Origin: Euglena gracilis
Lineage: Eukaryota
NCBI GenBank assembly: GCA_039621445.1
Contig: CP154954.1
Span: 34,383,737-34,447,736 of the forward strand
Reading direction: 5' to 3'
Length of the DNA stretch: 64,000 bases
Of the stretch, positions 23,713-60,307 are shown one piece after another. The notes beneath the pieces were generated by a model, which did no database searches, was not told the origin of the DNA, and saw nothing but the letters and a program-made list of their open reading frames with translations. The position numbers and the translations under genes were made by a program. How positions within the stretch are numbered: the first letter of the stretch is position 1; every line of letters begins with the position of its first letter.

Positions 23713-23751
23713 CGGTCCGGGGACCAAAAAGCAAAAAGTAGCTTTGATGAG

Positions 23752-23812: not shown

Positions 23813-23828
23813 GGCCTATAGGCCGATT

Positions 23829-29700: not shown

Positions 29701-29732
<32 letters not shown>

Positions 29733-30870: not shown

Positions 30871-30904
<34 letters not shown>

Positions 30905-36860: not shown

Positions 36861-39800
36861 TAGCTGTTGGAGGGCCAAATGAAGCCACTTTTTACTCCTC
36901 CATTGGTGGTTCATTTGCGCATTTGCGCGCATCACGTTGCTTGTGGGCACAAATGCGCAAATGAACCACATCTGCTGCTGGCGTTTCACAATTGTGTTTC
37001 CGTCACACCCTTCTTCTTTGGGTTTATGTGCGCATTTGCGTCCACCAATACAAATTTTTTTCGTGGGCGCAAATGCGCGCATAAACATAGTTTTGTTTGT
37101 GCGCGCATTTGCGCCCATAAGCTAACGCCGTCGACAAACGGTGAGACAAACCCACCAAATTATGTTTATCGATGGCACGCTGGTTCGCACCGTCACGGCC
37201 CCTTTGTCACGCCGTTTACCGACGGCATCAGTTCATGGGTGTTGAAGACCAACCCTTGAAAGACACAATTATGTTTATTTGCGCAAATGCGCGCACCAAC
37301 ATAATTATGTTGGTGCGCAATTGCGCAAATAAACACAAATTTGTTCTTTAAGGGTTCGGCTTCTTCTGCCGGGTTCTTTGCCACAAAACTGGTTGTGCAG
37401 ATCCCGGGTGTAAATAGGGTGGGAAACTTCATTCCCTGAGGTCCCTATTTCTTCCCCCCTGCGCATTCCTTGCCAAACACACACACTTATCTTCCTTTCC
37501 CTGCGTCCTTCCCGCCGGCTTGGCCACACCGCACCCTCACCCCCCAGCACTTCCTCCCCGCGCTTTAACAAACAACCCAAAAACACCACACCAAGGCGCC
37601 ACAAGCGAAGCAGTCCGGCAAACACCCAGGACCAACAACGCAGGCAAACCAGGCCCACACAGGAACACAGCCGACAAGAGCAACAAGGGCAGCAAAGGTC
37701 CCGTTCCTTTGCCGCTTTTTTGCCATTTTTTTCTCCCTTGGACGGGAAAGTCCCGGGGGTTTCGACGCGCGGAGCCATTTCCGGACCCACCAAAAACACC
37801 ATTTTTGGCCAAAGCCCCAGGGGTCTCACAGCCAAAAACAGAATTTAGCTCATTTTTTGCACTCTCTTGTCACCGTGTTTTCAAACACCCCCGGAGCCAT
37901 ACAGCCGAAGTGAAGAAATTCCGGGATTTGCGCAAATGTGCAAATAAACATAAAAAAGCTTAAATGCGAATCCGGCCTCCTAAGATCCATACAGATGGTG
38001 ATGCACATCCACTGTACGGTGACGCACATCCACCGGATGGTGACGCACATCCACCGGACGGTGTAGCACAGCCACAGCACGGTGACACACATCCACTGGA
38101 CGGTGACGTATGTTCCGGCGGACGGTGATGCACATCCACCGGAGGGTGACCCACCTCTGCCGGACGGTAACACACATCCACTGGACGGTGACGCGTGTTC
38201 CGGCGGACCGTGATGCACATCCACCGGAGGGTGACCCACCTACCCGGACGGTAACACACATCCACTGGACGGTGACGCATGCTCCGGCGGACCGTGATGC
38301 ACATCCACCGGAGGGTGACCCACCTCTACCGGACGGTAACACACATCCACCGGACGGTGACGCAAATCCACGGGACGGTGACGCATATTCCACCGGACGG
38401 TGATGAACATCTACCGGACGGTGACGCACATCCACCAGAAGGTGACACAAATACACTGGGCAAAGTCACACGTCCACCAGACGGTGACACACATCCACCA
38501 GACGGTGACGCACATCCACTGGACAGCGACGCACATCCACCGGAAGGTGACGCACCTCCACCGTATTGTGTGTAAATCCACCGGACGGTGACGCACAGCC
38601 ACCGGACGATGACACACATCCATCGGACGGTGATGCGCATCCACTGAACGGTAACTCACATCTACCAAACGGTAACTCACATTTACCGGACGGTGATGCA
38701 CATCCACCAGACGGTGACGACATCCACCGGAGAGTTACGCACCTCCACCGGACACTGACGCACATCCGAAGGAAGGTGACACACATCCACCGCACGGTGA
38801 CACACATCCACCGGATGGTGACGCACCTCCACCGGATGGTGACACACATCCACCGGACGGTGACACACATCCACCAGACCGTGGCACACATCCAACGATG
38901 CACATCCACTGGATGGTGACACACATCCACCGGATGGTGACGCACGTACACCAGACACTGACGCACATCCACCGGACGGTGACACACATCAACCGGACAG
39001 TGATGCACATCCACTGGACAGTGATGCACACCCGTCGGACGGTGACGCACATCCACCGGACGGTGACGCACCTCCACCGGACGGTGAAAGACCTCCACCA
39101 GACCGTGACACACATCCAACGATGCACATCCACCGGACGGTGATGCCCATCCACCGGACGGTGATGCACATCCACCGGACGGTGACACACATCCGAAAGA
39201 CGGTGATGCACATCCACCGGACACTGACGCACATCCGAAAGACGGTGACACACATCTAACGATGCACATCCACCGGACGGTGATGCCCATCCACCGGACG
39301 GTGATGCACATCCACCGGACGGTGACGCACATCCGAAAGACGGTGATGCACATCCACCGGACACTGACGCACATCCGAAAGACGGTGATGCACATCCACT
39401 GGAGGGTAATACACATCCACCGGACGGTGACGCACATCCGAAGGACGGTGACACACATCCACCAAATGGTGACATGCATCCACCAGACGGTGACACGCAT
39501 TCAACAACGCACATCCACCGCAAGGTGACGCACATCCACCGGACGGTGATGCCCATCCACCGGACGGTGATGCACATCCACCGGACGGTGACGCACATCC
39601 GAAAAACGGTGATGCACATCCACCGGACACTGACGCACATCCGAAAGACGGTGATGCACATCCACTGGAGGGTAATACACATCCACCGGACGGTGACGCA
39701 CATCCGAAGGACGGTGACACACATCCACCAAATGGTGACGTGCATCCACCAGACGGTGACACGCATTCAACAACGCACATCCACCGCAAGATGACGCACA

Positions 39801-41268
39801 TCCACCGGACGGTGATGCACATCCACCGGATGGTGATGCACATCCACCGGACGGTGACGCACATCCACCAGACGGCGACACACATCCAACGGCGCACATC
39901 CACCGGACGGTGGCAGACATGCACCAGATGGCGACGCAGTTCCACCGGACCGTGACGCACATCCACCGAAAAGTGACGCACATCCACCCGGTGGTGACGC
40001 CCATCCACCCGACAGTGACGCACATCCACCAGACAATAACTCACATCCACCGGACGGTAACTCACATCCACTGGACGTTGATGCCCATCCACTGGTGACG
40101 CACATCCGAAGGACGGTGAAACACATCCGAAGAACGGCGATGCACATCCACCGGAGGGTAATACACATTCACAGGACGGTGACACACTTCCACGGAACGG
40201 TCATGCACATCCACCGGATGGTGACGCACATCCACCGAACAGTAACGCACATCTACCGGAGGGTAATACACATTCACAGGACGGTGACGCACATCCACCA
40301 AACGGTGATGCACATCCACCGGACGGTGACGCACATCCACCGAACAGTAACGCACATCCACCGGACGGCGACACACATCCAACGACGCACATCCACCGGA
40401 CGGTGAAGCACATCCACCACCGGACGGTGATGCACATCCACCGGACACTGACGCACATCCACCGAACGGTGATGTACATCCACTGGACGGTGACACACAT
40501 CCAACGACGAACATCATCCGGACAGTGATGCACATCCACCGGACGGTGACACACATCCACCAGACGGTGACGCAAATCCACCGGACGGTGACGCACCTCC
40601 ACCGGGCGGTGACGCACCTCCACCGGGCGGTGACGCACATCCACCGGACAGTAACGCACATCCACCGGACGGTGACACACATCCACCGGATGGTAATGCA
40701 CATCCACCGGACGGTGACACACATCCACCAGACGGTGACGCACATCCACCGGGCACCTCCACCAGACGGTGACGTACATCCACCGCACGGTGACGCACCT
40801 CCACTGGACCGTGACACACATCCAATGACGCACATCCACCGCACGGTGACACACATCCACCGGACGGTGATGCACATCCACCGGACATAGGCGCATATTC
40901 CTTCGGACGGTGACGCACGTCCACCAGACGGTAACTCACGTCCACCGGACGGTGGCAAACATCCACCGGACGGTGGCACACATGCACCAGACGGTGACGC
41001 AGTTCCACCGGACGGTGACGCACATCCACCGAACATTTACGCACATCCACCCGATGGTGACGCCCATCCACCGGACAATGACGCACATCCCCCAGACGGT
41101 GATACACATCCTGACGGTGACTCGCATCCACCGGACAGCAACGCACATCCACCGGACAGTAACTCACATCCACCGGACGGTGATGCCCATCCACCGGACG
41201 GTGATGCACATCCACCGGACGGTGATGCCCATCCACCGGACGGTGATGCACATCCACCGGACACTGAC

Positions 41269-41578: not shown

Positions 41579-41942
41579 ACACTGACGCACATCCGAAGGA
41601 CGGTGACGCACATCCACTGGAGGGTAATACACATTCACAGGATGGTGATGCACATCCACCGCATGGTGAAGCACATCCACCAGACGGCGACACAAATCCA
41701 CGGGACAATGACGCACATCCACTGGACAGTGACGCACATCCGCCGGATGGTAACACAAAACGGTGACACACATCCACCAGACGGTGATGCACCACCACCA
41801 GACGGTGGTGCATCCACCGGACGGTGCCGCACATCCACCGGACCCTGATACAAAAAAAAAACAACCACGGGACGGTGATGTACATCCATCGGACAGTGAC
41901 ACATATCCACTGGACAGTGACGCACAGCCACAAGACTGTGAC

Positions 41943-42238
41943 CATACCATTGCTTAGCGACCCCCTGGGGAGGCGGTCACTTTCCACTCTGAAAAACCAA
42001 TCAGTCATTTTTTCTGAAAAAAAAAAACCAATCAGTCACTTTATCCCCCGGGGGGATCGGCCACGCAACAGGAGGCAATGAAATGTTGTCAAAAAATCCG
42101 GCGCCTTCGGCGCCAGGCCAGCCACTTTTCATTTTCAGGCCTACCCCACCCCCCCCAGGGGGGGGGTGGCTCTGGGCCGGAAAACCAGTCAGTCACCCCC
42201 CTGGGGGTGGGGCAGGACAGGTGCTCTGCAATGGTATG
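41943..42238. mobile_element. hAT-type MITE (296 bp)
   Basis: Perfect 11-bp TIRs CATACCATTGC / GCAATGGTATG. Perfect 8-bp TSD ACTGTGAC at 41935-41942 and 42239-42246. Confidence 0.93.
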
Positions 42239-42892
42239 ACTGTGACACATGTCCACCAGGTGGTGAGGCATATCCATTGGATAGAGATGCACATCCACTG
42301 GACGGTGGCACATATCCATTGGACAGTGACTTACATGTGACAGACAGTTAAGAGATGGTGACGCACATCCACCAGGCGGTGTTGCACATCCACCAGACTG
42401 TGCCGCCCATCCTTTGGCTGTCTGTTGGTTATGTGACTATGTCAGGCATGCACTCTTTTTGGCGTTTGGGATTCTCCCTTCAAAATAAGAACCTCCGGAA
42501 TGTTATATACTTCTGCAACACATTGCTAAAGTAAACTGGGGTGTTATGGTTATTACTTGGAAACCCAAGTCCACGTGCCAGTGCTGGTAGCTTTTTTTGT
42601 GGCAATAAAATTTCCATTTTCAATAGCGCTTCAGGTTACCCCTTTTTGGTCATTAGAACCATGGATGCTGCTTTTCTTTTCATTCTGTCTCACATTTATT
42701 TGAATTTTCGGCTTGCCGTGTAAGATTTTATGATTGTTTCCATTGCAAAAAAAAAAACGTGGGCTTTATTGCCTGCAAATTCAAAATAAATCGACAGGCT
42801 CGGGGGGATTATTATTGGGTATCAACTGGATTCTAGCTGGGGTTGGATTGCCTCCCCCTGTGGGGGGGGGGTTCTTGTGGGGGGCAAGGCAC

Positions 42893-42972
42893 CTTCCCAC
42901 CGCCGCCTGCAGGCCAAAGATGGTGAAGCCGCGGGCACTGTTGGTGGGGTCGAGGATGTCGGAGAGGTACGC
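42893..42972 (-). CDS. MFS transporter (ZIFL/DHA1-like), exon E: AYLSDILDPTNSARGFTIFGLQAAVG
   Basis: CTGCAG| acceptor and |GTGCC donor; phase 0 continues exon D; resembles the TM4-TM5 segment of ZIFL-type MFS proteins. Confidence 0.85.
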
Positions 42973-43310
42973 CTGCAGTGGTGTGGAAGAGAACGACCCC
43001 CCACCAACCTGTGACAAAAGGGGGAGGGGGGCGTATTACTCAGCGAGAAAACGTCCTGATAGTTGTAACGCAGCACAGTGCACATTTCTCTAGACGATTG
43101 CAACAGCAGTGGGATTCGCCCATACCGACGCCTGGGGCAGTTTGCATCAAATGAAGGTGGATGGGTGGGGCTTAAAATGAAGCCATAAGGCCCCAAAATA
43201 ACCGATGAAACTAACCCCCCTCCAAAGAACTCTCAGGACACAGAGGTGGGTAAGACCCTGCCCTGCCTCAAAACTTTTTGGTTGGAGTGCCATCAGTCGA
43301 GGGTTAAGGT

Positions 43311-43580
43311 CATACCATTGCTTATTGACCCCCCGGGGGAGGGGGGTCACTTTCCACTTCCAAAAAAACAAATCAGTTTTTTCAAAAACCAGTCACCCAC
43401 TTCCCACCCCCTCCCTGGGGGGGTCACTTTGGCCACTCACTCAGCCAAAAAAAAAATTCAGTTCGGTTCAAAATGAATGGATTCTGTCAAAAAATTTCAC
43501 CAAAATCCAAAACCAAAATCAAAATTTGACCAAAATTTTGGTCAAATTTTGGTCTTAAAAAATTTCCTGCGCCTTCATAG
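43311..43580 (+). mobile_element. partial relative of the 41943 MITE
   Basis: Starts CATACCATTGCTTA and shares GGTCACTTTCCACT and AATCAGT motifs. The right TIR was not found, so the end coordinate is approximate. Confidence 0.6.
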
Positions 43581-44244
43581 GCGGGTGGTGACTTTCTGCC
43601 CCACCCCAGTGTGAGGCGGGAATCGATGTAATTTAGGAGGGTCACAAATTGCAAAATTTAGCTGTCAAAGGTTTGGCCTTAGCTTTGCAGGGTACGCTGC
43701 GGCAGAGCTGGCTGGGGAACTGCTGCGCAGAGTGGTGCTGTGCCAGTGTACACACGCCATCACCACGCCCCATGGGCTGGCAGAGGCTTCAGGTGCCAAT
43801 TGGAAAATATTCGCTGGAGGAGGTGAAAATTAATTTTCATACATCTCCAATTTTATGGGTTGTACCCAACCCCAAGCCATAAAAACAAGCAGTTTGTTGA
43901 CATAAAATCCAGAAAATTGACAAAAACTCAGTCTCAGGTCAAAAACAGGCCAAGATGAGGAATTCTTCATAATCAGCAAACTCTTCCACAAGGTATCGAA
44001 AATCGCGGGGACAAAAAACAAAACAAGGAAAAAACACAAATTTTGCCAAGTTTGAAAAAAAGCACAAAAAATGAAAACACATTTGCTTTCTGCCCCCCCC
44101 CCCCCAGCCCTTGTTTCTCCCATGCAGCCCTGTTGAGGAAGTTTGCAGCCCTGGGGAGTTTGGAGGAGTTGAGGAACCACCCCTCACTCCCTTGAGGGCA
44201 GCCTTTGTCGTGAAAAACAATTCGGCATCTTTGGAGGGGGACAC

Positions 44245-44360
44245 CTTCGACACGGAGATGTTGCCGTTGGACAGCCCCCATAAGAACCGCAGGCACAGCG
44301 CGTGGAGGTAGGACGAGCTCAGCCCGAAGAGGAGGATGGCGACGGCGGTGCCGGCCAGTC
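44245..44360 (-). CDS. MFS transporter exon D: GLAGTAVAILLFGLSSSYLHALCLRFLWGLSNGNISVSK
   Basis: TCAG| acceptor, |GTGTCC donor, phase-compatible with exons C and E. RFLxGLxNGN is typical of ZIFL-type MFS TM4. Confidence 0.92.
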
Positions 44361-44603
44361 CTGAGCCGCACCGCGCAAAGGGGGAACCAAAGCCAGACAA
44401 CAGATGGAATATTAAAAAAAAATGCTTACAACAAGAAATCGAAGCAAAACAGCACCACATTCCAAGCTGCCACGGGTGAACCCCACCGCCCTGCCAATCC
44501 CACGCCCCACCCACCCGCCCGCCCGCCCCACAGGGTTGCCGGGGTTCTCGTTCAACTTCGCCCCAACCGGCCACGCGGGGCAGAGAGGAGGGCCCACACA
44601 CAC

Positions 44604-44649
44604 CGGCCATGAGGATGGGCCGGCGACCCCAGCGGTCTGCCGCCCAGCC
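44604..44649 (-). CDS. MFS transporter exon C: GWAADRWGRRPILMA
   Basis: Contains MFS motif A (GxxxDRxGRR); |GTGTGT donor in phase 1. Confidence 0.9.
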
Positions 44650-44750
44650 ACCGCCAGGGGTTGGGGGGCTCCGGCGGGGTCAGAGGGTTGGGGGGCTTGG
44701 AAACCTGGCAAACTGTCAGCCCCCCCCCCTCGTCCCGGCAAACCCTGGCC
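44650..44750 (-). other. nonconventional (non-GT-AG) euglenid-type intron, 101 nt
   Basis: TGG|GGCCAGGGTT...AACCCCTGGCGGT|GGC, with CAG at +4..+6 pairing with CTG at -8..-6. Removal restores YGW-GWAADRWGRR in frame. The junction could slide by up to 3 nt. Confidence 0.85.
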
Positions 44751-44814
44751 CCAGCCATAGGCGGCCAGCAGCTGCCCGAGGAAGAAGGCCGTCGTGAGGT
44801 ACCCGGTGTAGTAC
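44751..44814 (-). CDS. MFS transporter exon B: GYYTGYLTTAFFLGQLLAAYGW
   Basis: GGCAG| acceptor; the GG+G split codon joins exon A; TM2-like sequence. Confidence 0.9.
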
Positions 44815-45709
44815 CTGCCGACAGCGGCGCAGAAACCCACGAAGAACCGGACGGAAGCAAATGAAGCGGGAAGGGGACGGACCTTGCAATTCGCTTCACC
44901 AGCCAGGCAGACCTTGCTTTTGAGAGGGAGGATGACCATTGTACACGGATGGGACTGATCACGACATCCCGCCAGAAAATTTTTGGGGCGCAGATACCTG
45001 CCAAGCACGATTGCATCAAATCAGCTGCTGGGAATCTTTGCACAGAGCTCCCTCCTTTGTTGCAATGCAGCCAAAAAGGCTGGGTGCCGGAAGGAAGCAG
45101 GAAGACTCGAGCAGCAAAGAGAACACACATTGCACCAGGGGAAAAACGCCCTAATCTCCTCATTTCTTTGTGAGATTTTTTCCATAACCTTGCAAAAAAT
45201 TTTAGTATGTTTATCTGGTCTTGAGTCGAGACATATTTTGATGGTTTTGTGAAATTTCTAAAAATCTCCACCTCCAGCTCCTGAGTCTTTTTGCATCTGT
45301 GTGCGTGTGTTGAGTTCTTCCTGCCTGCCTGCGCGTGTGTTTGCATGACGAGTTTACACTTACTCCATTTACACTCAATCCCATTCTTGGTTTGAGCTTG
45401 ATTCACAGCATCCACCTGCTTCATTTCAAGCAAAGAATGCAATAACATAAACAGAACACAAAGAAAAATGGTTGAAACTTGATCCAGAGACACAAAATTT
45501 GACAGGTCCATTCACTCAAAACCTGCGGTATATTACCCCCCCCCCCACACACATTTTCAACCAACGCAAAATGATTACCATCTGTTTGTGAGATCCTGAT
45601 GTGTCCAAACTCGGGCTGGGCTGCATCAATTGTGCTGACCAGGTTTGACTGACGCTTACAGGCAGCCACGGCCATTCAGGTGGGAGGGGGTGGGGGCCGC
45701 GCCGCACAC

Positions 45710-45934
45710 CCAAGCTGCGACGTGGGGGAGGCGGGGAAGAACGCGCCGACCATGAAGGGGACGACCGGGAGGACGACCAGCATGCTGAAGTGGTTGGCGA
45801 GCAGCACCGCCCCGCCCAGGGACCCCCTTCACGTCCGCCCCGGAGAGCGGAGTCACACGGGCGGGCGAAGGGGATCCCTGGCCCCGACGGTGAGCACGCG
45901 GCGCCACGGCACCGGCGTCGGGGCGACCTCGGCC
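45710..45934 (-). CDS. MFS transporter exon A: ...VTPLSGADVKGV-LGGAVLLANHFSMLVVLPVVPFMVGAFFPASPTSQL (needs one 1-bp correction near 45820)
   Basis: GCCAG| acceptor after a pyrimidine-rich stretch, |GTGTGC donor; TPL plus TM1 'LPxxPFMV' pattern. The 5' boundary is less certain than the 3'. Confidence 0.75.
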
Positions 45935-47134
45935 CTGGCAACAACGCGAGGGGCGGGGAGTGGGGCACACAGACAGAGATAAACAGGGGGGGGGGGCAAG
46001 GCCAACCCACACACTGAGAGGATGTGGCAGGAGGGAGCATACCGGGCGAGGATGCCAACACAAGTACAAACGGCGGGGGGGGGGGGGCGGGGTGGGGGGG
46101 GGGGGGGGTGGGGGGGGGGGGGGGAGGGGGTGCGGGGGGGGCGTAAGTGCGGTGGCGACCATTGCCGCGGGGTTTTAAACGCACTACCGATCCGGAATGC
46201 GGAGAGAAACTGTGGGCTTGACCTTCACCGCTATCTTAACTGTGCAAAATGTGAACCTGGGATCAGTCTGTTTTGAGAGATATAAAATAAAAAAAAAACC
46301 TGACAGAATACTCTGATGTTCAGATGCACAAGAGTATGCACAAAATATGCACATTCTGGCTGCTTTTTTGCCTGACAGAGAAAATGACGAATATCGGAAT
46401 CCCACTGCCACTCTGGGAGGGGTAGTACAACGCTCTTAGAGTGCTCTCGTTCGCCCACCAGAGGGTTATTAAACACTTGTGCTATTTGTAATGTACCGGT
46501 ATGGAGTGTACACCCAACGGGCAGTTTCTGCCAATGACTTCAGGAGCATGTGCACGTGCGCGCGTGCATGCGCATGTGTGTTTGGCATCATACTGGGTCT
46601 CGGGGGCTGTTGCGGCATGTGTCATCCCTCCATCGGGCTGCAAAGAATAGAAAGAAACCAGCTGGAGTTCTGCCAAATATTTCGAAGTAGGTAGTCAGGG
46701 TCAAAGGTTAAAATTTTTGTTTCAATCAGGGTGCTTAGTGACCCCGGGGGGGGTCCAGCTCAGAGGCTGGAAAGTTTGGGTCGAAAAAGGCTGCTGGCTT
46801 TCTTCGACCCAAAAAGACCCATGGAGGTGCCCCCCGGCTGGAAGCGGCCCGAGCCCGACTGGGGGTCGCACCAGGTAACAAAAAAATTGAAACAGACCCA
46901 AAACTGCCACCTATGGGAAAAAATCATTTTTTGACCTGGCCTGCTCTTTTTCAACCCATCTTTGCCCGGTTTTGGCCCAGTTTGAGACCTCTAAAACCGA
47001 AAAATCCGTTACCATCCAGCCGTCCCTTGGGAGACTCCAAAACAGTTTAAACGTCGATGGCGGGGGTCTGGAGCTGGAAAAAGCTGCTGGCTAGAAAAAG
47101 GCTGCAGGGTGGCTGGACCCCTGGGGGGATGGGG

Positions 47135-47639
47135 CAGGGGGAAATATGCAGCAAGGCACCTCGAACTATGCAATGCAAAAAAATGCAGAAAAGTGCAACA
47201 AAAAACATACAAAAAGAATGCAAGTTGCACATGTAGATTCCTTTAGGAGCTCCCCGGGGCTGTACACTTCTCCACTGGAAAGGACTTAGACTTTCACCTT
47301 CTCCAAAAATCTTCTTCAACTTTCACCTGCTCCAAAAATGCAACACCAAAATAGAATGTGGGTGCAAACTACAAAGTCATATGGTGGTTCATCTAATTGC
47401 ATCCACTTATCCATTGATTTCATTATGCAACTGCTTATGTGCATTAGGTCCGAATGCAACTTCCAGCTCTCTCGCAGTGGAGCAATTTGCCCGTTTTGTC
47501 TGTGCAAATGCATGGAAAAAAAAGCGGAAATCGAAAAGGCAAAATGTGCAAAAAAAATGTAAAAAATGCAAAAAAAATTTTTCAAAAATTTTCATTATGC
47601 AAAAAAATGCACATTATGCAACTTGCATATCCCCCCCTG
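47135..47639. mobile_element. hAT-type non-autonomous element with AAAAATGC subterminal repeats
   Basis: CAGGGGGAAATATGCA ... TGCATATCCCCCCCTG, flanked on both sides by GATGGGG (an 8-bp TSD if one G was lost). Confidence 0.75.
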
Positions 47640-48779
47640 GATGGGGTGCCCTCTGGTTTAAGCGGCGCCTTGGTTTCGGTTCCTTCTATGGACAACATTG
47701 CTCACAAAAACAATGAAATGAACTCACTTTGCATGCATCTTTGCCTGCTGACTTTCACCGCCAAATGGAGTGAAAGAATGGTGCCACCAAAGCCATTTTG
47801 AGGTGAGGCATGAACTGGAAAGTGGAAAGTGCTTTGACTCTTTCCCATTCTCCAAACCCTTATGCCAACCTTTTCCCCAAACCTCGAGCCCTTACCCTTC
47901 ACTGGCAAGCCCTTGCTTCGGAACTGAAGATGAGCACTAACCCATGCAAATTTTCCTCCCATTCATCACATATATGGTGTGACATTCACCCTGGAGCCTC
48001 CCCAGGGGAGTTGGTTGAGGAGACATAAAATCTTCTTGCGCACGAGCCAACCTTTGCCTGTTTGACACGAAGGCAATTGAGCCGAAAACAGAGCACATTT
48101 CAGCGGATGAAATCAGACTGCAGTTAACCAACCTGGGGGGGGGGGTTCGGGTTGCACTGGAATGCCTGGGCAGGTATTGGAATGCCTAGGCATTACATTA
48201 CGCTGCACTGCTGCACTACCAAACTACCCCATTGAGGGGTCAAAATGCTCAGAAAAGGCTTCTCTGGGCTTCAGGCGCCTTTGGCGCCGGAAGAGCCTTG
48301 GCCGAGTACAAATAGGGGTGGACCTGGCTGCCTTGGAGTGCCTGCCCAGGCAGGCCCCCCAGAGTGGGGTTGGCCTCGCCCCAAAATTCAGCCTGGGTGA
48401 CAGTACATCAGCAACGTGATGCCAGGGTGGAATAGAAATACAAAAATGTATCGACCACTTCTGCAAAATTCACAAAATATATGTTTAATTGTAATGATTA
48501 CAACAACCCAAAAGACAGATGACTAAATGATGTTGTCACAATTTGGTATAACTCCTAGCAAACACCTGTGAATACCTGTTCAATCCTAGGGAATGGAGTA
48601 TGGCTCACAGAAAGCAGGTATTGTTCAGTTTCAAAAAGGGGCCCACGTCATGTCGCAGTCACGGACGGCAGGACCACTGGCAAGAATAGGACGTGGCAAA
48701 GGGCGTTGTCCCACAAGAAAGAAACCCATCGCCACATGGACAGCATTTGCGTGCGGGAGAAGGATAGGGTACAAGGGGG

Positions 48780-49270
48780 CAGGGCAGACGTGGGCGTCCC
48801 TGTGTAGCGTTCCGGGGGACCCGAGTCATCGAAGGGGCTCGTCCTCCGTGGTGTTGCCCCAGGGGTCGCTGCCGCCGTGCGAGGAGTCCGACAGCTCCTC
48901 GGGGCCGTCGCCCCCCAACCCTTGCACCTCCACCCATCCCACTGAGCCAGGCGGGCCGTCCGGCCCTGGTCCAGCGGTCCAGCCCCGGCGGTGGTCTGCC
49001 CACCACCTGCCTTGGCGCGCCACGGCACCGCCGCACGGGGTCCCCGGGGCACCTTTCCCTCAAAGCGACTACCGTTCACAAACCCAGCCTCCGCCCTCGA
49101 GTGCGTCCCCAGAGGTCAAGGGTGGGGACAGGCTGGGGGGGCCACGCGCGGCGGAGTCGACCCGGCCGGGGGCCCGCTGGGGCACTTGGGCGGCGGCGGC
49201 GGCGGGGGGGGGGGGGGGGCGGGCCCGGCGGCCGAGGAACGGGGCGCGGGGAACGCCGTGGGCCATGGCC
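48780..49270 (-). CDS. GC-rich candidate exons, possibly the N-terminal extension of the MFS gene (MAHGVPRAPFLG..., ...PEELSDSSHGGSDPWGNTTEDEP)
   Basis: High GC3 on the minus strand and a GGCAG| acceptor near 49007. Joins could not be established and no homology was recognised. Confidence 0.35.
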
Positions 49271-50893
49271 GGGGGTTGGCGGGCGGGCGGGCAGGCGGGC
49301 GGGGCGGGGGGTTGGCGGCCCCGAGCAACAAACAACAAAAGCTAACAACAGCTAAAAATCGACTTAGTCCACAGTCGCAAAGAAAAAATCAGAAAGCCCC
49401 GCACCACGCGTCACGAAAGAACTGACCTCGAAATCTTCAGAAGTCAGATAGATGAGTGGAGAAAGTGCAAAGGAATGGATGGCAGAAATATGGATCAGCG
49501 CGAGCAGATGGCAACATAATTATACCCACTCATGCTCAGACACGGGGAGGCAACCTGACTCGTAAAAAGATCTGCCAGACATTTCAAAGGTCAAAATGCG
49601 TTCAACTGGGGGGTATTCAGATATGACAACGCTATTCACCAGAGGCTTTTAAATTTAATCTTCCAATGCACACACAGATGACCTTGATAAAAAGATGGGT
49701 AGGGATCAGAGTTTGCACACGGCACTGTTTGGAGGAGCAGAACCTTGGTGGGCCTGCCACTTACACGTGGGGGCACCGCCTGAACTGGTTCACCGCCTTC
49801 TGGAGGCCTCTGTCCTTGGTTTCACCTTGGCACTTTAGAGTTTTGTCACTCTGGTGGGCACTGGGCATTTCGGGGGGGGGGGAGGCCGCCCCCTGCCACC
49901 CCCTGGGCAGCCGCGGCCGGCGGGCCGGGGGGCCGACCGTCGCTGCCGCCTTCCTCTTCACCCCCTTGCCCTTGCCCTTGCCCTTCCCCTTGCCCTGGCC
50001 CTTGCGGGGGACGGGGGGGTTCGGGGGAGGCGGGCCCCGGGGCCCCCCTTTTACGCCCCCCACCGTCACGGGGGGGGGGGGGGGGGGGGCGGGGTGCTCG
50101 GTGCCAATGGCCGGTGGTTTGTTGGGAGGCATTGGTGGGGCCGAAGGGGCGGCAGGAAACGTCCCCCTCCCCCTCCATGGACCGGGGGCCAACGTGTTGG
50201 GGGGGGGGGTCTGTGGCAGCCGCGCCAACGCCAGCGCAGGGGGCGCAACGGGGGAAAGGGTCGCCCCGCACGCCTTCCCACGCAGTTGTCCAGCCGAGGA
50301 CACACACTTGCTTGCCGGCCCTCGAGTCTGGGTTCACAATCCATTTTCAGAAAACAAGTGAGTCAAAGGGCCAAAATAATCACCCAAGCATCGTGTTCAC
50401 ATAGAAACTGTTCACGAATAAATCGGAACGTGCAATTTACTTAAGAGATCATCTGGTGAGAAAAATTTAGTAAACTTTTGCAAACTATAAAATAAATAAA
50501 TATAAATAAAACCCCCAACTCTCGCCTGTGCAAAACTGACACTCAGTTAATACCCTGTCCTCCCCCCGCCAAGACTTTGCACGTGTTGCAGCCAAGTGTC
50601 ACAAAGGGCAGACCAGGGGTTGCACTGCTGAATGCACCGTTGCTTTTTGTTGATTTTTCAAAAAAAATTGACCCAAAATTTCTGCTCCCCGCAAAGAAAC
50701 TTTGCGAGGCAGGAGGAAATCGAAAACTTATTTAGGGAGGAGCTGCATCATTTTTTGGGCCCCTCTCCCGCTTCGGGTTTTCCTGGACTACAAAAAAATA
50801 CAGGAGTTAACCCCCCCCCAAAAGAATCCGGGCCGGGCTGGGCCGGACGAAAAAAATGACACCCTGATGGGGTAATATTGCAAACCAATATTA

Positions 50894-51275
50894 CCTCCCC
50901 CCCCCCTTGTCTAAGCACCGGAAAGATGGGTAAGAACCGGGGGGGGGGGGTGCTTATTTTGCCATAATATGGGTAAGAACGAAGGGGGTGGTGCTTTGAA
51001 AAGGGGGAAAAATTTGACTGAAAAAAAAAAATATGGCGCTTCGCGCCGAAAAGCCAAGATCTCATTATTTTGGAGGTCCACTGTTGAACTCACACATTTG
51101 GATGCAGAAATCAACAATACCTCACCAAATCAGGTCTCAGAAGTTGCAGAAATTTCGAACTTTTTGAGAAATTTCCCTTAAAAATGCACACAAAATAAAC
51201 ATCCCCGTGACGATGACCTTTAAAAAGATGGGTAAGAACCGGGGGGGTGGTGCTTAGACAAGGGGGGGGGGGAGG
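50894..51275. mobile_element. MITE with TA target duplication
   Basis: TA|CCTCCCCCCCCCCTTGTCTAAGCACC ... GGTGCTTAGACAAGGGGGGGGGGGAGG|TA; internal ATGGGTAAGAAC occurs three times. Confidence 0.88.
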
Positions 51276-51426
51276 TACAATGCTTGCCGAAAAGAATTTT
51301 CTCCACAGTGCCAAATTCTCAACAAATATACTTTTCTTCAAGAATGACTTCAGCCACGCAAACAATAAATCCCAGCAACGTCAAAGAAACTATGCACTTC
51401 TCCCAAACTCAAGGGCAAGCAGGGGC

Positions 51427-51528
51427 CTGGCTCTGGCACAGGTCCAGCATGAACACCTGCTGCTCCGGGTTGCCCAGCACCCGGACCAACCCCAGGCCGG
51501 GGGAGTAGCAAGTCCGGGCCGCCGCCCC
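51427..51528 (-). CDS. candidate exon GAAARTCYSPGLGLVRVLGNPEQQVFMLDLCQSQ, unknown gene
   Basis: Strong GC3 bias; preceded by CCCTG-TCGGT|G, the same 3' geometry as the nonconventional intron. Confidence 0.45.
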
Positions 51529-53959
51529 ACCGACAGGGAGACCCCAGCACCCGACGGTTCAACGTTTGCCTCCAGGACGAGAAAGGCGGTGCTAAACCTG
51601 TTGATGCAACGGCATCACCGCGAGGCGAGCTGGTTTCAAGAATATCCTGTTGGGTCCCGGCGTTTTGAAGCAGGCCCCAATTGTGCACCAAGGCTGGGTC
51701 ACGCCCCGTTTCTGGAGTCAAATTAAAAAAAAAAAACGACGGACTGCAAAACACCAAAAAAATTCAACAAACGTGTACTTTGCTCACAGTCACTACCCTA
51801 CCCTGCCGACTAACCAAGTTAATTCAGCATCACAGGCATATGCAGTATCCTGATCTCGGTATATACACTGTCCTCCCTTCTTTCTTTAGCTGTGCATACG
51901 AAGGTGACTTAGCAGTACGCCAAAAAGCAAACATCGTCCAACAGACTGCGTACAATCCGCACTGATGAACCCGACTGCCTGCGTGATCACAGTCACTACC
52001 CACACGTGTGGTTTCATATGAAGCGGAATCCCGCTGCCTCCAGTAAAAGCAAAAAAGTAGGCTGACACTGGTAGGGAACCACAGGCCGTATATGGAGGAG
52101 GTGGGCAGTCCCCGCCACTTACGGCCTTTGCTGGCCATTGCCAGCGGCAGCCCACAGAGGACGTTCAGTTAAAGCAGCTGAATATGTGTGGTTCGGACTG
52201 TGTAATACTTTGTGGTCACATCACTCGGTATGAACAAATATAATCGCGATTCAAGTCGTAGGTGAAGCGGTTTTCCGCTTCATTCTATACTGTCTGGCAT
52301 ATAAAAGTGTCTTTCGCCATACCTTTAGTGGTAAAAACTCCACCAAGGTCATGTTTGCAGAGGACTTCTCATGGACTCGATGAACTCAGCGCAAATGTCG
52401 TACCGAAGGCTGAGATACGTGCACGATGAGTTGCAGTGGACCAATCTTGGCTTCGGTCCACCACTGTAACCGCGTTCTTCAATCTGGATGCTAACATTGC
52501 GATTGTTGTTCTGTTCAAGGTACATGCAACCGGTAAACAGTTATGCAGCTTGCGAGTGACATTAAGCATATTGGACACCTTATTAAAAGGTAGCGGAAAC
52601 CCGCCTCCTGTTCATTCTGCCACTGTATTTTGTCTGGATTGTAAGCATTGGAATTCAGTACGCGATGTTGTTAACCGTTTAACGCTTAACAGAACCACAA
52701 AATGCATTATGCAACCTTCAATGTAACGTACGTAACGTTTATGTACTGAGATGAATGGGGAGCCTGGACTGTACGATCACCTGCCCGGTCCAGCAAAAGC
52801 CGTAACCGAACCCCTGACGGCTGGGCACCGTTCAGGGGTGCGGGGAAGGAAATGAATTGGACCAGGTCCAGCCTCTCCTCTTTCTGTGAAATTGTGTCAA
52901 ATACGTACAAAGCAAGCGGAAAACCACTTGCTTTGTCTTGAAGACCTGGTTTTCATGGACCTACGCATGTGTCCCGCGTACAACTCAACCGCCCAACGGC
53001 CAATTGTACCATGCACCTGAAATGTTAGTTCTGCATTTAGTCTAGACCTGGAACCACTCTGTTTTCGGCAGTGCAAGGCGGGGAGCCACGGGGCTGCCGG
53101 GTGCCTGCTTCCACCGCTTGCGGCCCCGGCAGTCCACAGGAACAACCGACAGCGACGGTGGCTAACGTCGGTGTCAGGTAGAGTGTATCACAGAGATAGA
53201 ACGTGGTCTCTCCTCCTTTTTATCCTGTAAAGCATAAATTGTTCCTGTATTCCCGTCTGTTCTGTTTCAGTTGCGCTTTATGCAATATCACGACTATGTT
53301 TATCTGTGAAGCGGTATTCCGCTTCACTTTATTTTCGTTGTTACGCTTATGCGTCGGGTGTACACATGTATCTGTTATGCATATACTCGCATTATGTATC
53401 TGTCTGTGTGTCAGACAGATGTTGCCGTTCGTTGTTTGTCCATAATAATAATTTTTCTACAACATTTGGTTGTTTCGTATTTCCATCGGGATCTGCTAAA
53501 AATAAATTTCAGAAATCATCGAAGCGGTTTTCCGCTTCATGTGTTTTGTCATCAATATCACCGAAAAAATTTGCACTTCATGCGCAACTTGAAAATTTTC
53601 ACTGTTTTTCAGAGCATTTTTCGGGCATTCCAGGTGGTACTTCAGTCAAATTTTTCACGGGCAATTTATGCCTCCTAAGCTTTGGGCATAAAAAATGTAC
53701 AAAATGAAATCAGCATAAACCTCAAACCAATAACCCTTGAATTTGGGGAGGGTACCATTTTGATACAACTGTGTGCAAAATAGACATTTTTTTTAGTATA
53801 CCAAATCCTTCAAATTAAACAACATATCCAAACATAACAGACTTTCCTTTTTTTTTTGAGAAATGGCAGAAGCCCCCCCCCTCGGGTTTTCCGCAGACTG
53901 ACCGAATAGTAGCCCTGGGGGGCTTCTAATTGGGGGGGGGGGATACGAAAGGCCTACTC

Positions 53960-54185
53960 TTGGGGTAGGGCTAGGTTTTTGGTTAATTGAAAACAATAGG
54001 GTTAGGGTGAGGTTTTGGGAATAGAGTTAGGGTTAGGGTTTAGGCCTTTGGCCTAAATTTCAGCTAAATTCGGCCTAATTCAGGCCTAAATATAAGCCTG
54101 ATTTCGGCCCAAGTCCCTAACTTTGGCCTAACCCTAACCATAATCCCTTTCTTAACAACAACTGTAACCCTAACCCTGCCCCTAA
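53960..54185. repeat. degenerate telomere-like TTAGGG repeats followed by inverted CCCTAA repeats
   Basis: TAGGGTTAGGG...GTTAGGGTTAGGGTTTAGG, then CCTAACCCTAACC...TAACCCTAACCC. Confidence 0.75.
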
Positions 54186-55659
54186 AAATAACGAACACCA
54201 CCAAAACGTGTCGTCGAAGCCCCCTTCAGCTTGTGTTCAAGAATGTGGACCTCCCCCCGTTTAACTACTGGACCCCCAGGGGGGGGGGCAGTAGTTAAAG
54301 GCTGCCATTTGAAAATCCAATCGGTGGCTGGGTGTCCCAGATTCAAAAAGTGTGGAAACAGAGTCAAAAAGAGTGCGATTTCAAATAGCCTGGAAACGGC
54401 CCTGCTTTCATCACAAACAGGAAACTAATCGTACACATAACCATGGAAAAAATGTGCTCGTGTTCATGACCACCAAACCATTCCGATCTAAAGGTATGAA
54501 ACACATGTGGGCTGATACGAGTGGGTCAAGTGTTTTATCTCCAAGATGTTGCTGTGTTAAAGAACTCCACAACCACAAGAAAAACTAAAATCTTACCAAA
54601 ATTTTTGGCATCATAGCAAGAAGCGTTTCATATTTTCAACTGTATTTATGAGATCCGAATCCGAGAATTCCTAAACAAAATACCGCTTTGCTCCGCCGCG
54701 GAAGGTTATTCGGGTTTTTATAAAAGCATTCTGATGTGCCTGAGAATTTCAGTGTCACAATTCGCTGGATCCCCTCCCCTAAGCGCCCAGAATTGTCACC
54801 GACACCCTCCAAGGTTGTGAGGCGGTGCAAGCCATGCCACACCTTTCTGACTGTGGTCGGTGACAAGCCCATCAGGCCAAACTTAGGCCGCCCAATGAAA
54901 ATTTGACTGGGCAAAGATCCCGAAAGCAGCACCAAAAACCCCGCAAAATTTTTTCAAAGTTTTGGATGTCAGAGTTGACTTAAAAATTAAATTGGCTGCT
55001 GTTGTTGGCATCGCTGTGTTGTGGCAGGCAAGCACCTTCCCCCTTGCATCCCCCATCATTGCAAGAAAGCGGCTCAAATGAAACCTTGATGACTGAGGCT
55101 GGATCAGGTTTTTTTTTAAGACCGGGGGGGGGTCCCCCCCCACCCACCCACCCGCTGGGGGCCCTGGGACCCCCCCCGGGGGGTATTTTCGACACTGCCA
55201 AACGTGAATGCGGCAAAGCAAACACGCCATTCAGAAATATGATCGAAATATGTTACAACAATGGTCTGTGCAAGTCGGAAGGAGGGGTAACAGCGGTCAA
55301 TCGGACTCTGCCCACGACGTGGTGGAATCCGAAGACACAGAGGAGTCGGATGCATCCGACGAACTCACCACACGTTGAGACAAAGGGGATGACTGCGAAG
55401 CGGAGGAACCAGGTCCCCTGGTTCTCCGCTTCTTATGCTTCCCCCCCTTGTCTGAACGAGGGTAGCGAAAAGGCGCACGGCGCTTTGCCAAAACAAGAGA
55501 GACTTGCAAATGCATGATTTAAGAAGTTGAATTTGGTTCTTTCGTGACACTTTCACTTGTTTATTGACCCATGTCCATTCTTTGAAACATGCGAAACGAT
55601 ATGAGCACATTCACATGGAAAAAAAATACCAAAAAAGGGCCAATGGTTTTGCAAATCTC

Positions 55660-56760
55660 TAAAAGCGGCCATGTGGGAAACAATGGGTGAGGGGTCGAAC
55701 TGCTCCTAAGGTGGAGAGTCCAAAGCTACGATTAGGGTTTGAGACACAACAGATGGATCCAAACGCAATCATTGGGGGGATAGGAGAGTGGAGAGGCGGG
55801 AAAACGCTTGCTCGACCACCGCATTGCTGGGTGTCAGAGCTAACGCCATCCGCAATATGATGTGAAGGTTTGGAAACACATCTTTCTGCTGAATGATGCG
55901 TTTCCAAAATGTGTGTGAATTGGTAGGTGACCAAAGGGTTTGGTCGTCCGGCATGACGCTCAACGGCAGTGTGCACCAGGCGCATGTTCTCGTGGAAGTG
56001 CGCATGGCCACAGGATGGATGTATTTCCCCTTGGAATTTCATCCATTCTGTTTAAGGCTCTAGGCGCTTGGCCATGGCGATGACCATGCGACACTCGGTG
56101 GTACTCCAGTCCTCCTCCTTCGGCACCTCCACCACGGGCTGCATGTTGAAGCCCCAATCTCCAGCAGGCACACGATCCGCCTTCGCCTCGTTCACCAAGA
56201 AATGCGCGTCCGTCGGCGTGCAGTTGTCAGACTGCAGGGGGCATGCCAATGGCATGCCCCCCTGGTTTCGAATGCGCTTGGCATGTCCTTGTAGAACATT
56301 CTGAAAGTTCAGCTTGCGCTCCTCCTCCGTGAACACAATCAGCTTGCGGACGGCGTTCATCACTTCGGCATCATGGCTTCCGTCACAATGGACGAAAACC
56401 ATGGGTATTGAACTCCGGCTTCTTTTTGTACACAGGGCGCTGCTGTGTCGAAGAGGCAGCAGCAACTTGGAGGACAGGGGCAGCGACTGGTGGAACAGGG
56501 GCAGCGACTGGTGGAACAGGGGCAGCATCAGCAGGTTTGGCTTCGCCGCCGCCGAAGCACTCCTCGAGGCGCGGCTGCAGGCGAAGCGCCCACATCGCAG
56601 CCCGGTGCTCCCCGGACTTCTCGTGCTCGCGCACGGAATTTTTGACAGCAGTTACAATTTTTTTGGAATCACCGTGACCATGGAAAATGCCGATGCTTGC
56701 AATTCTCACAAAGATCAAATCAATGATGATTTCTGTTGAATTAACACAGAAACAAATCAT
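55660..56760 (-). pseudogene. decayed hAT transposase (C-terminal dimerisation domain recognisable)
   Basis: FWKRIIQQKDVFPNLHIILRMALALTPSNAVVEQAFSRLSTLLSPQ*LRL fits the hAT dimerisation consensus (TGA where Arg CGA is expected). Upstream fragments in shifted frames include SVREHEKSGEH. Confidence 0.8.
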
Positions 56761-57478
56761 GTGACAACTGAAATGAGAAATTTATTGACATTCACAAAGC
56801 AGAACACCAGAATCATACATAATGAAATAAAATTGTAACTGTCCAGAATTCTTCAACATGGAACCACAAAAGCACTTGTACATTTTGGCTGTGACAAGAG
56901 GCGCGGCAAAGAAAATTTTCGGCGCCTTCGCCGCCGGTCAAAAAAAAAAAAACTCCGGCACCCATGGCGCCGGGGACCCACCAGCCAAAAAAGGTACCCC
57001 CCTGGGGGGGGTCCGGCCGGACCCCCCCCCCCCCCCCCCCCCCCCCCCCGGGGGTCCACGACTAAAAAAAACCCCTGGGCTGGATGCCACTCCACATATT
57101 CATTTCAGGAAAGGGGTAGCACTCTCTGAACCACCCGCGTCTTCCACAATGCTGCATCCCAGCTCGTTATTGAACCCACAAAAAAACTTCAGACCCATCA
57201 CATTTGGCCAAAAACGTCCCCGATGCCCTCCCTCTCCCATTCAATTGAGGTGCTGCTCCGCAATGTCCGCAATGCCCCACACGGGGCAATGACGGCACTT
57301 GTCAGGAGGGCACAACACATTCCCTTCGTAAGCGCACAGCTGTGGGTGTTCCAGGGATTAAACAAGACGGCTGCAGCACCATCCAGACGGCATTCCGTGT
57401 CCCGCAATATACAACTGGGCCAAATCACAACAACTCGCTGACAACCAAATTTCCCACAATACAATTCTAAACCTCCTC

Positions 57479-58747
57479 CAGGGGGAGAAACTGCACACGG
57501 GCCTGTCAATAACTGCACTGCAAAAAAACTGCAAAAAAAAACTGCAAAAAACTGCAAAAAAAATGCAAAAAAACTGCACTTCAACAAAAAATAACAATAA
57601 ACAAGCTGAAATGGTATGCATATGCAAAAAAACGTAAATTGCTACCACATGAGCACGCCCCAATTCACCTAACTTTTTTTGCACGGCTTTGGAGCCGATG
57701 ACGAAAAAAATGGGAGCAATCAATCAAGGTGCACTGTGCATGGTTTTTCATGCACTGAAATGCAAGTCATGTGTCCAGATGCCGGGTCACACCGGTTTTC
57801 CTGCACCAAAACTTGTGCCGACCATGCCCACAAAGATGCCAAACGGCTGTCTTTCTAAATATGGGGAAAATGCACATTTACCCATACACAGAAATTTTCA
57901 ATACTTTCATTTCTTCCAGGGGATGTTCAGTTTGGAACTTCCGGTCCATCACCTGGTGAAGTTTCCCCATGTCACGATGAAAAAAAATCTACAAAAACCA
58001 CCACAAACTTTGAACATTGTCCTTAGGGGAATGCCAAATGGTCTACAACCTGGGAATTTCTTGCAAATAAGAAAGAACTTCTTGCTCTTTGAAGCATTTG
58101 GCTTATATGACATTTGGCCACAATGCTTGGGGCAAGACCCAATCTTCTTCAGGAGTTCATTTACAGCACCACGAATTTCGAAATCCTCAACTCCAACTGC
58201 AACCAAAATTTGCACAAAAAAACAGTTTTTGTATTTAGTCCCTAGGAATCCCGACATAAATAGTTGAATCTGCTCAGGAGTGCGCAAATGACACTTGCCA
58301 AAATGAGCATCGTCACATCTGTCACCACAGGCTGGAGATGGAGCAATTTTGGTTGGGGAGTAATTGTGGTCTTGTCACCGAAACAATCTGTTGTTTTTTT
58401 TTGGAATGGTGGCTGCACCAATCTGTGTTTTTAAGAGGCAAGGCAGTTGGCAATACAGTTGGGGGCAAAACAATTGGTGGGATAACTGTAGACAACACAA
58501 CTCCTGAGAGATGATGCCTTTTCTTGAGAAACACCCTTCAAAACATATAATCCAGCACCCAAAAAAAAACAGACACGTCAGGTTTCCTCAAAATTGGAAT
58601 AAAAAAAACTGCAAAAAACTGCACGTGTGCAGTTTTTTTCAGAAAAAAAAGCTGCAAAAAAACTGCAAAAAAATTGCAAAAAAAAACCCAAAACGTGAAA
58701 ACGGCAAAAAACTGCAAAAACTGCGCGGTGCATATCCCCCCCCCCTG
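57479..58747. mobile_element. probable hAT-type element related to 47135-47639, with AAAAACTGC repeats and unrelated internal sequence
   Basis: CAGGGGGAGAAACTGCAC ... GTGCATATCCCCCCCCCCTG; flanks share only CTCCTC. Confidence 0.5.
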
Positions 58748-59653
58748 GCTCCTCCCTCCCCCTGCATTCATGTGTCATTTTGCAAGGCCCCATCTGGACC
58801 AGGCTGGGCCAGGTTGGGCATGTTCTACGATTCTCCCAGATGAACGTGCCATCACAGCAGAACCTTAGTGTTTGACCACTCACCACCACCGGAATGTCCA
58901 TGACATACAGGCTATTTTGAATTGCACACATGCCAGATGAAAGCAGTGGGTTCCGACTTCGTCTCCCCCTCCTTCTAGTGCCCCTTCCGACCACTCAGGC
59001 CTTTGAAGTCATTGCCCTGAAAATTTTTATCTTCAGAACGAAGCGTGACTCTGCTTCCTCCTGGCCGCTTTAAGATTTTTTGGGAGTTTCTGTTGCACCT
59101 CCTCCTGCCCCTCATTTCTGCCGATTGACGTCCAAAACGAAGCGGGTTTTGGCAATCTCCGCTTCCCCTTCTCTTCCCATCTTCGCTAAAACCCCCAATT
59201 TTGGTCATTTTGCATTTTGGCGACTCGGCAATGAAAGGAACTGGGCAATAACGAAAAGTTGTTTTCCCTTTGCCTGAAAATTTTGTGTACTTTTCGCCGT
59301 CGACTTCCACTGAAAGCATGCCCCTTTTTTGCTCATTTGGACCTCTTGTAGAAAGCCATTACTCCAAACCAAAACGGACTGTTCCAAAAAAGGTTAAAAA
59401 TTTTTGGGGGTCAAACGAAGCGGATTTCCACTTCCTTCTCCGCTTCAAACCTTCAAAAACTTTTGGGCAACTTACGCCGCCCAAGCCAAACCTCCAGGGT
59501 TTGCCTTTTTTTATTCTTCCTCAGCTATTTAAGGTAATTAAGCTAATTAAGCTAATTTGCAGTTGCGGTCGGTCGCCAACACACAGCAGGCGGGGTGGTG
59601 GAGCCCAGCCCGCAGCCCAGTGAACAGCAGCCGAGGCGGCGGCCCGCGGGGAC

Positions 59654-59780
59654 GGCCCCCTTCAGGCCCTTCCGCTTCCACACCCAGTCTCCACCGGGGA
59701 CCTGCTGCAGCGTGCCGAGGTGCTCCTCCGGGAAGCACCCGTCGAGGTGGGCCATGAGGGCCTCCACCGGCCCCGTGAAC
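59654..59780 (-). CDS. exon of unknown gene: FTGPVEALMAHLDGCFPEEHLGTLQQ(VPGGDWVWKRKGLKGA)
   Basis: Pyrimidine tract and GCAG| acceptor, phase matches the 61512 donor, high GC3. The donor is either after 59702 or after 59654. Confidence 0.6.
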
Positions 59781-60307
59781 CTGCGGCACGGGAGGACGAT
59801 GGGCGAGGGAGGGGGACGGTTGGGGAGGAGGGCTGGGCTTGGGGTGGGGCCCGTGAATGAAATGCGGGGGGGGGGTGAGGCCACTGGGGGAAGGAGGTGG
59901 GAGGAGGACTGGGGGGTGTGGGTAAACTTTCCACTTTTCTCAACGATTGATGACACTAGGCGATTTGCAGCATTCTTTTTTTGGAAATTTAGCACCACGA
60001 CCTTGCTAGCTTGAACAGAAAGCGCGCAAAAAAAGCATTTTCATTGGTCGGCAGGAGATGGTCGGTATGAATGTGTAAATATGGAGAGTGGGGAGCAGCC
60101 CCAAAATCCATAGGTGTCAGTTTTGGTGTGCACGACGGGGGAGGCACACATCAAGTGGGAGTAAAACCACCCAAAATAATGTCCCTGAGGGTCGGACTTC
60201 GACCGAGGAGTAAATATCCCCCTGCCAAGGACTTCGCACGTGTTGCCGGTAGGCAATATTCTTTTTAAGGGCCTTAAAAAACCTTACAAGAACTTTAAAA
60301 ATTGGTA

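Follow-up and report, generated by a model that had tools for sequence, protein, structure and literature searches.

Possible origin of a 101-nt nonconventional intron of Euglena gracilis from a hAT-type element

This report concerns a nonconventional (NC) intron of 101 nt, situated on the minus strand at 44650..44750 of a 64,000-nucleotide stretch of Euglena gracilis DNA (contig CP154954.1 of assembly GCA_039621445.1, positions 34,383,737 to 34,447,736; the whole stretch is referred to here as the window), and the proposal that a small transposable element of the hAT type, once inserted, gave rise to it. More than half of the window is occupied by satellite arrays, at 7-16664, 24803-35805 and 37997-41262, with units of 213, 79 and 21 bp; the gene-bearing part extends over approximately 42-64 kb, and the sequence is euglenid-like. 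The host of the 101-nt intron was recognised as a gene for an MFS-type transporter, read from the minus strand, through its phmmer relatives and their alignment: a search with a stretch spanning two exons retrieved 13 relatives and one genomic fragment, and the Pfam domain MFS_1 was found in all three of the relatives tested. Pfam gave no match for the two open reading frames (ORFs) around the intron, and a homologue search with the exon-bearing ORF at 43942-44679 found among close matches the unspliced genomic-type fragment P0001 alone, and no longer proteins. The exon upstream of the intron (44751..44812, minus strand) ends in ...YYTGYLTTAFFLGQLLAAYGW, and the downstream exon (44604..44649, minus strand, 46 nt), GWAADRWGRRPILMAG, carries the MFS loop motif; both are defined by RNA contigs, joints, translation and alignment. 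After the downstream exon comes a GT-AG intron of the conventional kind, 243 nt long (44361-44603, minus strand), established from RNA. It is one of four such introns in the MFS transcript, the others being seen as skips of 1272, 895 and 659 nt.

Read on the minus strand, the intron and its borders are ...TATGGCTGG/GGC-CAGGGTTTGCC...CCAACCCCTG-GCGGT/GGCTGGGCG..., with slashes at the two junctions. The core, CAGGG...CCCTG, occupies 44655..44747 (minus strand, 93 nt) and places CAG at +4 to +6 and CTG at -8 to -6, so that 101 = 3 + 93 + 5, exactly the geometry described in an initial annotation made from the DNA sequence; the range given there, 44642-44755, takes in exon bases on either side. 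The junction was examined by mapping RNA onto 42301-62300, using contigs of runs X1, X3 and X19 (from three studies, their kind being guessed as RNA) together with raw RNA-seq reads of run X21, of which about 5 in 100 were used. A joint 44646->44748 was found that skips 101 nt and has three ambiguous bases, which leaves four equivalent cuts, from 44647-44747 to 44650-44750, the last being the version proposed initially. X1, X3 and X19 each supply a single contig with this joint (depths 10.5, 50.6 and 79.5), and 12 + 7 raw reads of X21, with 18 start points, show it too, while no other junction for this intron occurs among the 15 joints listed. The ends GT/GC-AG are absent from all four slid cuts, which read GG..GT, GC..TG, CC..GG and CA..GC. 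The cDNA check called for by the initial annotation thus upholds its junction, with three contig runs and 19 raw reads, and the RNA shows that the unit removed is the core plus 8 nt.

The reading frame gives the same result. The spliced product of the host gene, built by a script that joins exons at their coordinates, translates as ...LPVVPFMVGAFFPASPTSQLGYYTGYLTTAFFLGQLLAAYGWGWAADRWGRRPILMAGLAGTAV..., and when this product, with 101 nt excised, was aligned by MAFFT, it needed no gaps against six relatives over the stretch that begins with the G.Y.G anchor and ends with WGW..D..GRRP. The intron lies between W and G of this conserved WGW, which is present at the site in seven of the eight aligned homologues; all six homologues that span the site have the spacing of the 101-nt product. 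A Euglena NC splicing code, 5'-N3CDG-/-CH'GN5-6 followed by R, was set by knock-ins at a foreign exon; the 3-nt spacer tolerated no change of length, and the 3' spacer tolerated 5-6 nt (PMC12501133). The intron here has CDG at +4 to +6 after a 3-nt spacer (GGC-CAG, 44750..44745, minus strand) and, at its other end, CH'G at -8 to -6, a 5-nt spacer and an exon that opens with a purine (CTG-GCGGT, then G). Both the minimum-energy and the centroid folds contain a terminal stem GCCAGGG/CCCUGGC, pairing bases 2-8 with 92-98. What lies at 44650..44750 is a euglenid nonconventional intron, ordinary and functional, whose junction is confirmed.

The question is then how it arose. Immediately outside the core, the left 8-mer GCTGGGGC (44748..44755, minus strand) consists of five exon nucleotides and the intronic N3, and is the putative left copy of a target site duplication; the right 8-mer GCGGTGGC (44647..44654, minus strand) consists of the intronic N5 and three exon nucleotides. 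The two are identical at 6/8 positions, as was noted initially; the local empirical probability of a match this good or better is 0.0098, against 0.0018 for at least 7/8 and 0.0003 for 8/8. The accompanying remark that both mismatches fall in intronic sequence is true but uninformative, as each compared position pairs one exonic with one intronic base. The core itself has a terminal inverted repeat, CAGGGTTTGCCGGG against CAGGGGTTGGGGGG, which matches at 11/14 positions without gaps and has the CAG start of hAT-type elements.

Today GCCAGGG pairs with CCCUGGC in the pre-mRNA, and the NC splicing system cuts 3 nt before CAG and 5 nt after CTG, ahead of a purine; removal of the 101 nt restores the conserved ...GWGWAADRWGRRP... 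frame. The favoured explanation of the intron's origin is that a small hAT-type inverted-repeat element, the present 93-nt core, inserted into the codons for W and G, with GCTGGGGC as the 8-bp target that was duplicated. Because 3 + 5 = 8, splicing would take out the element together with exactly one copy of the duplication, and the insertion would have been harmless from the outset. The intronic halves of the duplication would since have drifted, two substitutions giving the present 6/8, and an empty, pre-insertion site would read ...GGCTGGGGCTGGGCG.... We put the probability that the 101-nt intron began in this way, as a hAT-type insertion with an 8-bp duplication, at roughly 60%. The spacer lengths of the code were fixed at a foreign site (PMC12501133), which means that splicing can do without identity of the flanks and that such identity, wherever it occurs, is a historical footprint.

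Two further NC introns in the window are supported by RNA. The second NC intron of the MFS gene (45812..45883, minus strand) has 72 nt, GGC-CAGGGATCCCC...GGGGGTCCCTG-GGCGG before an exonic G, with a core at 45817-45880 whose inverted repeat matches at 13/14; its RNA joint, 45808->45881, skips 72 nt and has six ambiguous bases. Its flanks, GTCGGGGC and GGCGGGGC, agree at 7/8 positions (P about 0.002), and this register is the unique best one. The targets of the two MFS-gene introns (44748-44755 and 45881-45888) are themselves alike, GCTGGGGC matching GTCGGGGC at 6/8, and both introns start GGC-CAGGG; such likeness could stem from a preference in target choice or in splicing. The third NC intron belongs to a different gene (51510..59649, minus strand) and has 8140 nt, CCG-CGG...CCG-GACTT before an exonic G, its joint 51509->59650 being supported by one X19 contig and five X21 reads. 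When the three introns are pooled, 14/24 flank positions match (P = 0.003 at p = 0.29). Among CAG..CTG pairs with a repeat of at least 10/12, of which the window has 84, flanks matching at 7/8 or better are found in two: the 72-nt intron and a transposon of 1973 bp.

That transposon, a hAT-type element at 55105-57077 (plus strand; 55097..57085 with its duplications), has CAGG...CCTG ends and the perfect 8-bp duplication GGCTGGAT on both sides, and is enclosed by the 8140-nt intron. Inside it, at 55772..56038 on the minus strand, lies a remnant of the C-terminal dimerisation domain of a hAT transposase. The remnant ORF matches Pfam PF05699 (Dimer_Tnp_hAT) with an E-value of 1.3e-4 and 22.1 bits (cut-off 21.4), being the one among 203 ORFs of 55-89 aa to do so, and it is 65% identical (E 7.7e-13) to P0016, which carries PF05699. 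No transposase match was found by Pfam among 145 ORFs of at least 90 aa, and a PDB sequence search with the remnant returned 0 matches. Read from either strand, the element would fit the NC code; the 15 joints listed include none of its own. A second element, a transposable element of the miniature inverted-repeat type (MITE) with 296 bp at 41943-42238 (plus strand; 41935..42246 with its duplications), has the ends CATACCATTGC...GCAATGGTATG and a perfect duplication of 8 bp, ACTGTGAC; a further copy, truncated, lies at 43311 to about 43490. Both elements sit in introns, which places the origin of their 8-bp repeats in insertion rather than in splicing. The initial annotation was thus right that the window holds both elements with perfect 8-bp duplications and the remnant of a hAT transposase. 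The MITE ends CATACC/GGTATG also bound the published NC intron core of Monomorphina tubB-13, and E. agilis gapC-4 has CATTACC/GGTATG.

A trace of the terminus of the 101-nt intron recurs close by. At 44531..44543 (plus strand), 217 nt away in the next conventional intron, CAGGGTTGCCGGG is an inverted near-copy of the 5' terminus CAGGGTTTGCCGGG: it corresponds to the first 14 nt of the core, inverted and with one deletion, and a match within one edit arose in 10 of 2000 local shuffles. The likeness ends after the terminus, and a transposon end that is repeated would be expected to recur in this way. The terminus and its near-copy enclose the 46-nt exon; the near-copy could belong to another element of the same family, as its solo end, or could serve in long-range pairing of the RNA. 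The motif CAGGGTTG has four matches in the window against 6.4 expected, that is, without enrichment, and searches for partners and duplications of the termini yielded nothing convincing. The search for the core elsewhere that the initial annotation had proposed yielded no other copy in the 64-kb window, only this terminus-like 13-mer at 44531.

Published junction tables offer further evidence. Three NC introns have flanks that match at 8/8, all in the 5+3 register and all with inverted-repeat cores, as counted by eye: E. agilis ACOI 323 gapC-4 (GTCCC/aac against gtccc/AAC, core ends cat..atg; PMC4770533 Table S3), Lepocinclis tubB-12 (TTCCT/aac against ttcct/AAC, core ends cag..ctg) and Monomorphina tubB-13 (ATCCC/tcc against atccc/TCC, core ends catacc..ggtatg). 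In a sample from PMC3935182, made up of the first-listed N or N/I row at 14 positions with one row of four exon letters dropped, 55/112 positions match by eye; at the four outer positions, which are without known consensus, 25/56 match (P 0.003-0.01). All 33 rows that were counted give 131/264, the rows not being independent of each other, and at nine older positions in PMC4770533 the mean over strains is 2.9/8, against about 2.2 expected.

The idea is in part already in print, and the initial claim is less new than was stated. A MITE origin of NC introns was proposed in 2013 (PMC3935182); CAG/CTG has been named a 'TIR' and the junction repeats 'TSD-like' (PMC11282704); 84% of introns are described as 'slidable' by virtue of direct repeats, with MITE-like elements suggested as their source (PMC12501133); and 'eight nucleotide direct repeats' were reported at a newly gained gapC intron of one E. 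agilis strain (PMC4770533). The literature searched contained no statement equating the 3+5 spacers with the 8-bp hAT duplication, no paper linking Euglena introns to hAT target site duplications, and no description of hAT elements for E. gracilis, the Merlin paper (PMC8101967) alone being found. It seems, then, that the link between spacer length, the number eight and hAT is explicit nowhere in that literature, the rest of the idea being largely published.

A number of observations weigh against a hAT-type insertion here, and several of them speak for the proposal that this is an NC intron of other origin, for example filler DNA from the repair of a double-strand break or an old intron that gained a CAG/CTG stem, the 6/8 match resulting from chance and from the Y/R preference that the junctions share, in coding sequence rich in G. 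The duplication, degenerate as it is, lies in just such G-rich DNA; a P-value of about 0.01 is modest for a case that had been picked by the earlier annotation; and another register within +/-10 nt outscores it with 8/8. The core is single-copy in the window and has only CAGG/CCTG in common with the 1973-bp element, its inverted repeat is short, and its fold is of ordinary stability (z-score 0.16; 102/200 shuffles fold as well). The 8140-nt intron, of CGG..CCG type, has flanks that agree at 1/8 positions. A looser scan of CAG..CTG pairs gave at least 6/8 in 6/105 pairs (three from one poly-A locus) against 10/420 in control registers, so that across the window there is no clear enrichment, in a scan that has little power. 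The junction consensus is itself published: the Y/R preference at both NC junctions (PMC4770533) inflates identity in the register, and conventional introns also score highly through their CAG/G consensus (E. gracilis tubA-3 gives 6/8 by eye), for which reason the weight rests on the perfect 8-mers and the outer positions. The counts from published junctions were made by eye rather than by script, from tables that show five exon nucleotides on each side of an intron, and the authors of PMC4770533 favour double-strand-break repair for their 8-nt repeat. Set against this other origin are the sister intron, with 7/8 in a register that is the unique best; the three published cases of 8/8, all with inverted-repeat cores; the presence in non-coding DNA of the same window of elements with 8-bp duplications and like ends, one with a hAT domain; and the recurrence of the intron terminus nearby. 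On balance, an origin other than transposition is a real possibility that we consider rather unlikely.

The register that outscores 6/8 requires separate comment. The perfect repeat TGGCTGGG, at 44757..44750 and 44650..44643, with its copies 107 nt apart, is the best direct repeat around the intron, and could be thought to be the true duplication; on that view the 99 nt separating the copies would be the element, and splicing would be imprecise, leaving six extra nucleotides (Gly-Trp) in the mRNA. Excisions of 101 and 107 nt share a reading frame. A pre-insertion gene of this kind would, however, have been two residues short compared with all six spanning homologues, seven of eight homologues carry WGW, and the RNA gives the 101-nt joint, with no 107-nt joint among the 15 listed of 70 joints. 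The ends would also be asymmetric, with GC before CAG and GCGG after CTG, unlike the hAT element of the window, whose duplication abuts CAGG/CCTG. Given the homologue alignment and the RNA joint, TGGCTGGG is a by-product of the codons GGC TGG GGC TGG (GWGW) and not the excision unit; on the alignment it was rejected as a target duplication, a role in which it retains hardly any credibility, and the register of the initial annotation stands. Assignment of the core to another superfamily that makes 8-bp duplications, for instance Merlin, is also highly improbable. Merlin is the sole family of DNA transposons with 8-bp duplications that was found for E. gracilis in the literature searched, where two families are described, both with such duplications and with a conserved terminal GG (PMC8101967). 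A terminal GG would accordingly be expected, whereas the elements here start with CAG or CAT directly at the duplication; the one coding remnant found among the window's elements is that of a hAT domain; and DDE_Tnp_IS1595 has no match in the 348 ORFs scanned.

Taken with these points, a transposon origin is moderately supported for this particular intron, the argument from geometry being well supported in general. The claim that the 3+5 offset is the hAT duplication, and that such insertions are spliced out seamlessly, is partly supported: in general by the genuine hAT element of like geometry nearby and by the published 8/8 repeats in the predicted register, while for the 101-nt intron itself a transposon origin is likely. 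A wider proposal is that NC splicing is tuned to hAT geometry, its 3 + 5 offsets removing exactly one 8-bp duplication, such that hAT MITEs landing in exons are erased without a scar, that such insertions are the ancestors of most NC introns in Euglena, which number several hundred thousand, and that the splicing machinery may be transposon-related. This we advance tentatively, judging it somewhat less probable than its negation.

Several other features of the window deserve record. Apart from the introns, the MFS transcript differs from the genomic sequence at window position 44359, a single base away from where the 243-nt intron has its acceptor; there the window has T (plus strand) and all four RNA data sets have C. 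The aligner gave the 243-nt intron a skip of 244 nt and one additional letter, which is read as the effect of this T>C difference beside the true intron. The difference leaves the amino acid unaltered (GGA to GGG) and may go back to variation between strains, to an error of the assembly or to editing of the RNA. The MFS mRNA contig runs about 590 nt past the exon at 42893-42971, and a 30-nt contig end downstream of 42879 found no place in the window, which implies either that the 3' exons of the gene are far off or that the assembly is broken near the satellites. Three long open frames of 873, 520 and 325 aa (17910-20528, 21315-22874 and 22841-23815, minus strand) lie between two of the satellite arrays and gave no Pfam match at E <= 0.01. 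An Rfam scan of 41300-64000 gave no matches, and a joint 45707->61602, considered as a possible spliced-leader gene, was dropped on inspection of its sequence. Poly-G/poly-C tracts at 49198-49223 and 60308-60330, on opposite strands, are joined by many raw reads with variable runs of G between them, most likely an artefact of low-complexity mapping or template switching.

The origin and the removal of euglenid NC introns have been in question since the 1990s. If the 3+5 spacers do represent the 8-bp hAT duplication, then the question of origin would reduce to a genome-wide count of identity at one register and one length, expected to decay with the age of the intron. The same equation would account for the roughly 70-85% of Euglena introns that are nonconventional and 'slidable' (PMC12501133), and would make Euglena a second, spliceosome-independent case of transposons generating introns. 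To this the present locus contributes a cDNA-verified, weathered example with a hAT element of the same geometry nearby; stronger support comes from the published junction tables, with their perfect 8-nt repeats in the predicted register.

Among known systems, the non-autonomous hAT elements and hAT MITEs of the Ac/Ds type resemble the intron in being non-coding and in having short terminal inverted repeats that begin CAG or CAGGG, and they have an 8-bp duplication to which the putative one here would correspond; the intron differs from them in that its flanks agree at 6/8, that there are no further copies in the window, and that CAGG alone is common to it and the hAT element of the window. 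More generally, hAT terminal repeats start CAG or TAG, with the end consensus YARNG, and the target consensus is nTnnnnAn. Ds is said to have been described by Giroux, in 1994, as a 'de novo intron'. The Merlin elements of E. gracilis share the 8-bp duplications, and their terminal GG and IS1595-type transposase are features not seen here (PMC8101967). With the euglenid NC introns, as described in PMC12501133, PMC3935182 and PMC4770533, the intron has all elements of the code in common and is likewise 'slidable' by virtue of a short direct repeat, and nothing essential differs. A further comparison is with intron 4 of gapC in E. agilis ACOI 323, which also has its junction repeat in the 5+3 register and also loses its core plus 8 nt; that intron is strain-specific, with 8/8 and CAT..ATG, and the one here has 6/8 and CAG..CTG. 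In Micromonas and other algae, Introner elements are short inverted-repeat transposons that make seamlessly removed introns, the element and its duplication between them supplying what splicing needs. Those introns are spliceosomal, with GT/GC-AG ends and one splice site drawn from a 3-bp duplication (PMC11282704), whereas here the code is a non-spliceosomal one of 3 and 5 nt and the duplication is one of 8 bp.

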